Source: Flavobacteriales bacterium (GTDB lineage Bacteria; Bacteroidota; Bacteroidia; Palsa-965). Taken from it: a stretch of 64,000 nucleotides of DNA. Shown piece after piece: positions 44,321-46,114 of the stretch; position 1 is the stretch's first letter, and the number at the start of each line of letters is the position of its first letter. The translations under genes were made by a program, and so were the position numbers. Location of the stretch: the NCBI GenBank assembly GCA_040377305.1, contig JBEIPA010000018.1, forward strand, positions 1-64,000, in the 5' to 3' direction. The notes below the pieces were generated by a model. That model had not been told where the DNA came from and ran no database searches. It saw only the letters and a program-made list of their open reading frames with translations.

Positions 44321-44365
44321 ATAAAAAGTGGAGCAACTGCCCGCCCCCTTGCAGACAGTCGCTCC
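44321..44365 (-). terminator. Intrinsic terminator of the 21-aa peptide gene
   Basis: Minus strand GGAGCGACTGTCTGC-AAGGGG-GCGGGCAGTTGCTCC-ACTTTTTATTT: a 15-bp stem whose three non-Watson-Crick pairs are G-U only on the minus strand. Confidence 0.8.
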
Positions 44366-44393
44366 GGAGAAAAACTAGCGCTTAATCTCTCTA

Positions 44394-44459
44394 TTAGAAT
44401 CCGAGGTTATCAGTAGTGATAATGCGGACAATGTCGTTGATGAGTGTAATGATTTCCAT
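44394..44459 (-). CDS. 21-aa peptide MEIITLINDIVRIITTDNLGF
   Basis: Hand translation. A-rich leader AAACAACTACACATT-ATG, tandem stops TAA TAG, strand-specific terminator ~25 bp downstream; divergent from the TPR-like gene. Confidence 0.65.
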   Translation of the reverse strand: MEIITLINDIVRIITTDNLGF

Positions 44460-44569
44460 AATGTGTAGTTGTTTATGGATCCAAAATTCCTCTGAAACGG
44501 ATGGTTTTGTTAGAAGAAATAAGCGCGTTTTTGACATTCACTTAAATCGCTGTTTTACAGTAATTTACA

Positions 44570-46114
44570 ATGGAAGTAGTCGAATCAATTCAACGAATCA
44601 CCAGCCGTCTCACTGAGGAAGAGACGAGCACTGCAAGGGCCTATCTCACTGTCTTTAGCCAGAAAGGTAAAGAAGCGCGTGCGATACGGATGTTTGAAAT
44701 GATTGTTGAACACAATCAAAACAACAACAAGCAGCCTCTTGATTTCAAACAACTGGAGATTACGTTATACGGAGCTCCTTCTGCTACCAACTTCACCCGA
44801 CTCGCTTACAGACTGAGAGAAAAAATTCTTGAATCACTTGTTCTGGATGTCAATGCAAACCGCGAAGGCGCATATGACGATCGTACAAAGATCAACATCG
44901 AAGTCAGAAAAAATATCACGCAGGCACAAATTCTACAGAGTCGTGGCTTGCATGACATTTCAGAAGTCATTCTGGAAACAGTAATCAAGCAGTGCAAGAA
45001 ATATGAAATCCTGGAAGAGTTGCTGCTTGCAATCCGATTGCTCATTAATCTTCGTCGTGCTGAAGACGGAACAAAATTTTTAAAGAACTGGCTCGCAACT
45101 TATGAGAAGTTCGATTACATGAAGAGTGCGCTCATGAGGGCAGAAGCGAACATGTGTCTTGTGCACGCCGAACTCGATTTCAAAGCCGGTGAAAAAGCAA
45201 AAGCCGATTGGCTGAAACCTTTTCTGGATGAAATGATTGTTGATTACCGCAAAACATCTTGTGCACACATTGGCTTCAACTATTTTTATCTGCAGGCTCA
45301 GTACTTCCAGATCATTCGCGATTACCGCAATGCAAGAAAAGCCTTAGAAGACAACCACAATCTTCTGGAAACACATCCGAGTATTTTCACGAAAATCCGT
45401 GCGGGCAATGTATTGTCAAATATTGCCGACAATGATTTGTACCTCCGACAATTTGCGCGCTGCCAGAAAACTGCTGTGAAAGCGATGCAACATTTCAAAG
45501 AGACGAGTTTCAATCATCAGCAGGCCATTGAGCTTGTTTTCTATTCGCACTATTATCGCGGCGATTACAAAACAGCCAAGGAAACACTGGACCAGCTATT
45601 GCCCGACACAGAAGTATTGAGTGATCTGAAGTATCAGCAAGGTAAACGCATTTATCTGCTTGCCTGTACACATTTCATGATGCGTAACTACAACGTAACG
45701 CTGAAGCTGCTGAATCGAATTACGAATCCTATTGAGGCAGATAAAGAAGGATGGAATATCGGCTTGCGCATACTTACTATTATGACGTTGATCGAGTTGG
45801 AGAAATTCGACGAAGCAACTTCACGAATTGCAGCTTTGAAATCATTCATCGATTCGGTTGGAAAAGACGGCATCACTGATCGTGCACTTTCTATTCTCAC
45901 GCTCTTACGCAAATTGAGCAATGCTTCTTTTGACTTTAAAGTCGTGCACCAGAAAGAAAAAGAAAGAATCGAAGCACTGAGTGAACTGGAATGGACACCG
46001 AAATCGCCGGAAATGGTAATGGTTGATCAGTGGTTGCGTTCGAAAATTCTCAAGAAGCCACTCGAACTTGCACTCTCAGTTGAGGAAGGCACGCAGAAAG
46101 TCAGCGCGTCCTAG
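44570..46114 (+). CDS. Helical/TPR-like protein, candidate peptide-responsive regulator
   Basis: 514 aa, no signal peptide. N-terminal helical domain with RLAYRLREKILESL followed by TPR-like repeats. Confidence 0.7.
   Translation: MEVVESIQRITSRLTEEETSTARAYLTVFSQKGKEARAIRMFEMIVEHNQNNNKQPLDFKQLEITLYGAPSATNFTRLAYRLREKILESLVLDVNANREGAYDDRTKINIEVRKNITQAQILQSRGLHDISEVILETVIKQCKKYEILEELLLAIRLLINLRRAEDGTKFLKNWLATYEKFDYMKSALMRAEANMCLVHAELDFKAGEKAKADWLKPFLDEMIVDYRKTSCAHIGFNYFYLQAQYFQIIRDYRNARKALEDNHNLLETHPSIFTKIRAGNVLSNIADNDLYLRQFARCQKTAVKAMQHFKETSFNHQQAIELVFYSHYYRGDYKTAKETLDQLLPDTEVLSDLKYQQGKRIYLLACTHFMMRNYNVTLKLLNRITNPIEADKEGWNIGLRILTIMTLIELEKFDEATSRIAALKSFIDSVGKDGITDRALSILTLLRKLSNASFDFKVVHQKEKERIEALSELEWTPKSPEMVMVDQWLRSKILKKPLELALSVEEGTQKVSAS

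Follow-up and report, generated by a model that had tools for sequence, protein, structure and literature searches.

A conserved but unannotated peptide gene beside a candidate regulator of Rap-like fold, with a putative operator, in a Flavobacteriales bacterium

The DNA analyzed here (the window) is a stretch of 64,000 nucleotides from a Flavobacteriales bacterium (contig JBEIPA010000018.1 of assembly GCA_040377305.1, our contig C24), which belongs to a near-complete 5.2-Mb assembly and is unremarkable in GC content. We describe a divergent gene pair that lies between its positions 44,321 and 46,114. On the minus strand, at 44394..44459, there is a peptide gene of 21 codons, with an amphipathic N-terminal part and a conserved C-terminal nonamer, and on the plus strand, at 44570..46114, there is the gene for a 514-aa protein, which its homologues, its model and its structural alignment mark as a candidate cytoplasmic receptor and transcription regulator. 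An earlier reading made from the sequence alone (the sequence-only reading) had placed a 21-aa open reading frame (ORF) with a double stop at 44459-44394(-), 110 bp from the start of the 514-aa gene, and the list of ORFs agrees: the listed minus-strand ORF ends at 44394, translation from the internal ATG at 44459 yields the 21-aa peptide, it closes with TAA TAG, and the two divergent ATGs are 110 nt apart. The start context, described as A-rich, is better called A/C-rich, with no G in the 12 nt 5′ of the ATG.

Judged from the pattern of substitutions, the 21-codon ORF very likely codes for protein. When the last nine codons were compared pairwise between the window and loci L031 and L033, its closest relatives, 6, 3 and 4 silent changes and no replacements were counted, i.e., the codons at 44397..44423 (minus strand) specify the same residues, IITTDNLGF (the predicted mature ligand), in the three loci. 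The N-terminal halves of the peptide, unlike the tail, vary among them. In 12 non-overlapping pairs of peptide ORFs, 144 of the 239 base changes fell in third codon positions, and 103 codon changes were silent vs 74 that were replacements. A 47-aa reading from 44537 was rejected, since it meets an in-frame stop in L031 and the ATG that it needs is part of the conserved promoter box, upstream of the predicted -7 element. The 21-mer was absent from the protein collection searched, and the precursors of 18 relatives gave no Pfam match above the cut-off, the best being PepSY_2 (E 0.003). By composition, the N-terminal part of the window peptide has a hydrophobic moment of 0.77, the net charge is -2, the best 19-residue hydropathy is 1.08 with no hydrophobic run of transmembrane length, and the lack of K or R at residues 2-8 means that there is no Sec-type basic N-region.

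The ORF is followed by an intrinsic terminator (44320..44365, minus strand), predicted from folding and conservation and composed of a 15-pair stem at 44365-44330 and the T-rich tail ACTTTTTATT. The sequence-only reading had proposed this hairpin as specific to the minus strand, and it is indeed far more stable there (-35.1 kcal/mol, z -5.0, with none of 200 shuffles as good) than on the plus strand (-18.4 kcal/mol, z -2.0). All 15 pairs are kept across the three closest loci, and 3 of them show two-sided changes, a count that comes from three sequences only and is equaled by 44 of 500 shuffles.

Small ORFs on the opposite strand were also detected upstream of receptor homologues, and they fall into three kinds of precursor, of 20-30 aa (n=34), 31-85 aa (n=41) and 86-105 aa (n=39), which cluster on the receptor tree (a FastTree tree in which six duplicate rows, L245, L247, L248, L249, L253 and L254, are wrongly labeled as having no peptide). 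The sequence-only reading had suggested a search beside the homologues for small ORFs with a similar tail, and such ORFs are present: a rule that includes the II-x-x-acidic tail selected 67 of 157 receptor homologues vs 31 of 1851 control genes, or 12 of the 521 controls that have free space upstream (this same gene is among the 12), and a strict hydrophobic-start rule, which misses the window's own ORF, picked out 103 of the 158 receptor loci, against 185 of the 1970 controls; these pairing counts are descriptive and are not tests, because the rules were set after the data had been seen and the loci are related. An unpublished genome, G012, contributes two rows to most counts and one 20-aa example, and the tail rule gives 67/155 loci when it is omitted. 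The peptide sets were picked by rule and not curated by hand, so that they hold some probable false picks (L099, L101, L153) and miss some real peptides. Two of the picks, L153 and L181 (family f68), are ~100-aa helix-turn-helix (HTH)-like ORFs divergent from a second, tandem receptor copy, and are probably not peptide precursors.

The motif [IV][IV]-x(1-3)-[DE] was found in 73 of 114 tails (shuffling gave 23.5 on average and 36 at most), and 44 of these have it starting nine residues from the C-terminal end, in precursors of 20 to 105 aa. The tail occurs three times within each of two 53-aa precursors, and 2-4 tandem copies of the peptide gene were found at nine loci. A hydrophobic N-terminal part is kept in all the precursor kinds, and in 38 of the 39 long precursors it is preceded by a basic N-region, as in Sec signals. 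Some precursors of ~97 aa (L129, L063, L066 and others) seem to hold a small folded domain that ends in the tail, and the weak PepSY_2 match is to one of these. Tail identity drops from 0.95 to 0.08 with falling receptor identity, which is not proof of co-evolution because leader identity declines too. Among receptors without a divergent peptide, a downstream convergent candidate ORF was present in 2 of 14 downstream stretches. The partner ORFs of L259 and L261 (family f2), of 62 and 80 aa, are of this downstream and convergent type; in them a longer basic tail comes after an II-x-E-D core. No peptide ORF was evident beside the other receptor paralogs of the window's genome, or beside three more distant relatives of 450-520 aa on its other contigs (L241, L242 and L244), which share mainly the N-terminal part; L241 is divergent from a secreted-type gene.

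The 514-aa protein had been described as carrying repeats like tetratricopeptide repeats (TPRs), and at the level of fold this description stands. Its AlphaFold model is all-helical, with a mean predicted local distance difference test (pLDDT) score of 85.6; the Pfam TPR matches were all below the cut-off, and no Pfam or NCBIfam family was found above it. Residues ~100-500 (44867..46069, plus strand) are modeled as a TPR-like superhelix with a predicted peptide-binding groove, in line with structural alignment and conservation. The comparison with RRNPP structures that the sequence-only reading had called for placed Rap as the closest solved fold: among 48,161 solved chains (VIA-align) the repeat region matched best pLS20 Rap (Z 20.9, root-mean-square deviation 3.4, 274 aligned), followed by RapI (20.4), phi105 Rap with peptide (19.6), LGN (18.8), Pins (18.3), RapH (18.1) and NprR (18.1). 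Because of this ranking, the modeled fold appears to be of the peptide-binding TPR type, with the RRNPP proteins nearest. Asn284, Asn288, Asn315, Asn396, Asp391, Trp395 and several Arg and Lys residues are conserved in the repeat region, and by analogy with peptide-binding TPRs they are candidates for peptide contact.

Residues 35-93 (44672..44848, plus strand) resemble the winged-helix core of OmpR/Trans_reg_C proteins and are predicted to bind DNA. When they were compared by hhalign with an OmpR-type Trans_reg_C profile, home-made from 30 sequences (30 loci), a probability of 89.6 and a pairwise E of 1.9e-6 were obtained (90.8 with a larger alignment). The controls, i.e., a LuxR profile, reversed columns and 20 shuffles, scored ≤3.2, and non-overlapping windows of the receptor scored ≤2.1 against the OmpR profile and ≤5.9 against LuxR. 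The match covers 55 columns and includes no wing strand. On the predicted recognition helix, Arg81 hardly varies, and the consensus includes Leu78 and Lys85.

We then turn to the space between the two ATGs. A predicted -7 box, GAATTTTG, lies at 44482..44489 (minus strand), 22 nt upstream of the peptide ATG, with one mismatch to the consensus TANNTTTG (PMC12632263). The -7 box of Bacteroidota is given there as TANNTTTGY, and the TTTG fits its tail. Further upstream, the distal box GAATGTC (44533..44539, minus strand), a predicted half-site of the receptor operator, has its TGTC exactly 47 nt before the TTTG. This distal box is intact in the window, and the proximal repeat position (44514..44517, minus strand), 28 nt before the TTTG, is degenerate (TCTT), with TGTC or TTTC in relatives. 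Upstream of 113 peptide ATGs, TGTC-N28-TTTG was found 36 times (0.28 expected), TGTC-N47-TTTG 29 times (0.24 expected) and TGTC-N15-T[GT]TC, which has a 19-nt period, 22 times (0.32 expected); the three-part motif was matched at 11 of its 12 positions in 32 of the 113 loci and in none of 20 shuffled sets. With a matrix trained without this locus, the window promoter ranked second in the 5.2-Mb genome (20.7 bits; training sites 21.7-34.2), and with a matrix from 15 close loci, two of whose training sites are probably mis-anchored, it ranked first (37.6 vs 20.7). The motif was present at 57 of 111 receptors with a peptide vs 4 of 46 without. A strict pattern gave 12 matches in ten genomes, eight of them at peptide promoters and four unchecked, and three matches when run backwards; since the pattern was derived from these sites, only the scarcity of other sites is informative. 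Taken together, the spacings and the scarcity of the motif away from peptide genes make the TGTC direct repeat a likely operator, and we infer that the receptor is the protein that binds it. An inverted-repeat operator (TGTC-N21-RACA, nine loci) was set aside, the direct-repeat spacing being stronger.

Two variations on these promoters were seen in relatives. In the clade of L110, L112-L115, L121, L122 and L145, a different repeated word, TCGAT, was noticed by eye at the peptide promoters; the gene after the receptor in L110 and L112-L115 is presumably panB. In L032, L004, L047, L034, L035, L108 and the unpublished L056, an element resembling TTTG-N19/20-(T)TACTTT[AG] lies on the receptor strand, 93-114 nt past the peptide stop, and is directed back towards the peptide gene. 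The element is degenerate in L035 and L108, shows no overall enrichment (6/33 vs 3.9 expected) and could not be discerned in the window; its sequence suggests a possible antisense or receptor promoter.

We conclude that the peptide gene is real and conserved, though it carries no annotation, and that it forms a pair with a regulator of Rap fold, itself unnamed, and has a candidate operator. Our preferred interpretation, which the comparative sequence evidence makes moderately probable, is that the two genes form a conserved module, an RRNPP-like, self-inducing pair of a peptide signal and its cytoplasmic receptor, without being filed as a member of RRNPP. In the mechanism that we propose, the 21-aa precursor would be made from its own short, terminated transcript, its amphipathic N-terminal part would be removed during or after passage through the membrane, and the nonamer IITTDNLGF would be released, re-enter the cytoplasm and bind the TPR groove, where the conserved Asn residues would contact the peptide backbone and basic residues the acidic positions 5-6. 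A receptor dimer would bind the TGTC repeat of 19-bp period, located where a -33 box would be, and would activate the peptide promoter as a class II activator, which would close a positive feedback loop.

Several observations weigh against this interpretation. The loci are related, so that the counts overstate their independence; the rule left 47 of 160 receptors without a peptide, this locus being among the misses, most members of two receptor families have no divergent peptide, and it is missing from whole clades. A mutual-information analysis of tail against receptor columns (73 pairs, ~51 effective) gave as its top pair Ser283 and tail position 4 (z 5.3), with no regional enrichment over the leader control; Ser283 adjoins Asn284. 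As for common descent with the RRNPP receptors, these are the top structural matches, yet identity to the structural matches is 8-13%, LGN ranks among the Rap proteins, Foldseek puts Rap 24th among many TPR proteins, and sequence search gave no RRNPP chain at E up to 1 and no profile match. The winged helix was not recovered by Pfam, PDB-sequence or single-sequence-model searches; a single-sequence model of residues 1-97 (pLDDT 64) matched generic helical bundles only, and 117 N-terminal domains had no significant match in profile and Pfam searches. Because the library searches miss it, we regard the winged helix as likely rather than proven. No second convincing operator site was found in this genome, and the 41 intergenic regions examined before downstream genes show no enrichment of the motif. 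Finally, the peptide would have to cross two membranes, and by composition a basic N-region is present in only 2 of the 34 short and 1 of the 41 medium peptides.

These last points would be accommodated if the peptide were never exported in this clade and bound the receptor of the cell that made it, serving as feedback inhibitor or timer, with the receptor sensing something else. An amphipathic window peptide that is not signal-like, and a diderm envelope that makes export and re-import harder, fit such an intracellular modulator. Nevertheless, the same nine-residue tail is carried by precursors of 90-105 aa with Sec-like leaders, the internal repeats and tandem copies fit the release of a processed peptide, and the hydrophobic N-terminal part is always kept, so we consider intracellular modulation rather unlikely. 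Less likely still is that the peptide is the output, a secreted amphipathic effector controlled by an adjacent SARP-like activator that responds to another cue. The near confinement of the operator-like motif to peptide genes and the strong amphipathicity of the N-terminal half would agree with this; conservation, however, is centered on the tail, with the amphipathic part varying among the closest relatives, the tail alone is common to precursors of unrelated shape, and the receptor is modeled with a fold of the peptide-binding type.

We give little credence to the view that the TGTC/TTTG motif is a promoter for an alternative sigma factor, or another regulator's site, and that the TPR protein acts by protein contact, as Rap does, and not on DNA. 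Rap proteins, which have no HTH, are the top fold matches, the winged-helix match is short and wingless, and a receiver-only response regulator is encoded 205 nt downstream of the receptor in the window. But the motif goes with the peptide gene and is close to single-copy in each genome, which would not be expected of a sigma regulon, the response regulator is not kept in L031, and the residues noted above on the predicted recognition helix, Arg81 in particular, speak for contact with DNA. Type I toxins have a hydrophobic helix of transmembrane length, often with a cationic end. The alternative raised by the sequence-only reading, such a membrane-damaging small peptide checked by an antisense RNA and linked to the TPR gene by chance or regulation, is very improbable: size, hydrophobicity, the strong terminator and the convergent promoter-like element of several sister-clade loci would suit it, but the peptide has a net charge of -2 and no hydrophobic run long enough for such a helix, the predicted leader (<22 nt) leaves no room for a structured leader, the convergent element is neither enriched nor evident here, no Rfam family covers the peptide gene, and the family extends to 100-aa secreted-type precursors.

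Among known systems, the HTH domains of RRNPP receptors are of the XRE type, the Rgg-SHP genes lie back to back, and PrgX-prgQ of pCF10 has overlapping transcripts. SARP/OmpR-type activators have a winged helix followed by helical repeats, and bind direct repeats just upstream of the core promoter, with a period of 11 or 22. The module resembles the latter in a predicted winged-helix core followed by helical repeats and in direct repeats just upstream of the core promoter, and differs from SARPs in the 19-bp period and in its paired peptide gene; no BTAD domain was found in the 514-aa protein by Pfam at E up to 0.1. With PrgX-prgQ the module shares a short peptide gene opposite the receptor, and the convergent element of the sister clade recalls the overlapping transcripts; unlike that system it is chromosomal (no plasmid or phage match), and no such element is evident in the window.

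RRNPP systems are delimited by a propeptide of 10-100 aa, export by Sec (PptAB for SHP and PrgQ), a receptor of 250-500 aa with TPRs, and adjacent genes (PMC10075063). In the window the propeptide has 21 aa (20-105 aa in relatives), the genes are 110 bp apart, the receptor model matches Rap with the Pfam TPRs below the cut-off, and the length of 514 aa falls just outside the operational size range; as to export, composition gives the window peptide no basic N-region and 38 of 39 long precursors one. A TPR fold nearest Rap and close to NprR, an adjacent small precursor with a C-terminal candidate mature peptide, and many paralogs per genome recall NprR-NprX, Rap-Phr and PlcR-PapR; tandem-repeated peptides are also found in RRNPP systems (PMC11343458), and the positive feedback predicted here is found in PlcR-PapR (PMC3509411). 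In Rgg-SHP, a ~21-aa precursor is encoded beside the receptor gene, its C-terminal 8-mer is active, and the activator site lies over the -35 position of the peptide promoter (PMC3509411). The likeness to Rgg-SHP drawn by the sequence-only reading thus survives for layout and precursor size, and extends to predicted activator sites where the upstream promoter box should be, as for Rgg2 at the shp promoters (PMC3509411). It does not extend to the proteins: an NCBIfam scan of 31 members, which looked for the Rgg C-terminal models, gave only NF058569, far below its cut-off, and one chance match, the receptor is longer, the short peptides have no basic N-terminal residues (net charge -2 in the window), and the tail is acidic/polar rather than hydrophobic. 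Differences from RRNPP as a whole are the diderm host, the OmpR-type winged-helix match, the direct-repeat operator, the divergent layout, the nine-residue acidic tail and the lack of detectable sequence homology. The module is likened to RRNPP and not filed as a member because the size cut-off and the Rgg model are missed, the DNA-binding domain differs and export is only predicted; the closest known systems are NprR-NprX and Rap-Phr by fold and Rgg-SHP by layout.

The homologue search with the 514-aa protein gave 31 matches including itself, and the family comprises 746 clusters at 50% identity (E up to 1e-30), mostly of 480-545 aa. Members were present in 22 of the 41 genomes of relatives, each genome holding up to 11 paralog matches, and in 86 of the 401 that were sampled from the class, a tally in which at most three candidates were scored per genome and which alone includes the unpublished genome G122. 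Neither G122 nor G012 bears on any of the conclusions. The relatives carry Bacteroidia or Bacteroidota labels from their sources. No receptor relative was found in the viral contigs, plasmids and phages searched, and the ESM Atlas gave unnamed Bacteroidota clusters only, with nothing useful for residues 1-100. The window's genome has four SBP_bac_5 oligopeptide-type binding proteins as well as M50 proteases, both of which are common.

Around the pair, synteny with CHAD, Na/Pi cotransporter and PorP genes extends to L031, and the downstream neighbor differs. The interval 46320-47264 of the window holds the receiver-only response regulator, a short GIY-YIG ORF (46949-46695) and two near-identical terminator hairpins (46988-46965 and 47160-47140), all of them downstream of a tRNA-Ser gene (47264-47179). 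In the sister clade (40-55% identity), the gene after the receptor usually encodes a secreted protein, with signal-like starts in L032, L035, L044, L045, L046, L047 and L056, and tails of the type IX secretion system (T9SS) were found in three of the five large downstream proteins scanned; these secreted T9SS proteins are candidates for downstream targets. At L046:3242-7521, a C39-peptidase ABC transporter lies downstream of a close receptor, with a possible short precursor ORF before the transporter, as in clusters for peptides that are made on the ribosome and modified after translation (RiPPs). Neither the secreted downstream gene nor the C39 transporter arrangement holds in the window. A peptide-less paralog outside the window (G000:C5:20346-21833; L273:14347-15831) and L271:4985-6487 lie, in two genomes, directly after the tape-measure gene of a contractile injection system (PF19268), and in the window's genome this paralog precedes a GH108 lysozyme; it may regulate the contractile injection cluster.

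A wider proposal, for which we would put the chances slightly below even, is that the Bacteroidota have a large, independently built peptide language, with nine-residue II-x-x-acidic signals, three precursor designs (21-aa amphipathic, 40-80-aa acidic and ~97-aa Sec-exported), crossing of a double membrane, unnamed winged-helix/Rap-fold receptors and one shared TGTC direct-repeat operator. The literature searched contained no account of a peptide/TPR-receptor pair from Bacteroidota, although most subscription papers were beyond its reach and the supplements of RRNPP surveys could list non-Firmicutes cases. RRNPP-type cytoplasmic peptide receptors are described for Firmicutes (PMC10075063, PMC9765709, PMC12700828), the word 'Bacteroid' does not occur in the available part of PMC12700828, and the Gram-negative signals listed in the available part of a 2026 perspective are small molecules only, including N-acyl-cyclolysines for Bacteroidota (PMC13419125).

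If the wider proposal is true, this would be the first peptide quorum sensing with a cytoplasmic receptor in Gram-negative bacteria. A peptide system of this kind would also pose the problem of how its signal gets out of a diderm cell and back in. The hosts appear uncultured, although a concrete ligand, a cognate code over ~70 pairs and a candidate operator make the proposal testable with synthetic peptides and purified protein. With members in 86 of the 401 genomes sampled, it would give the environmental Bacteroidia a further layer of signaling.

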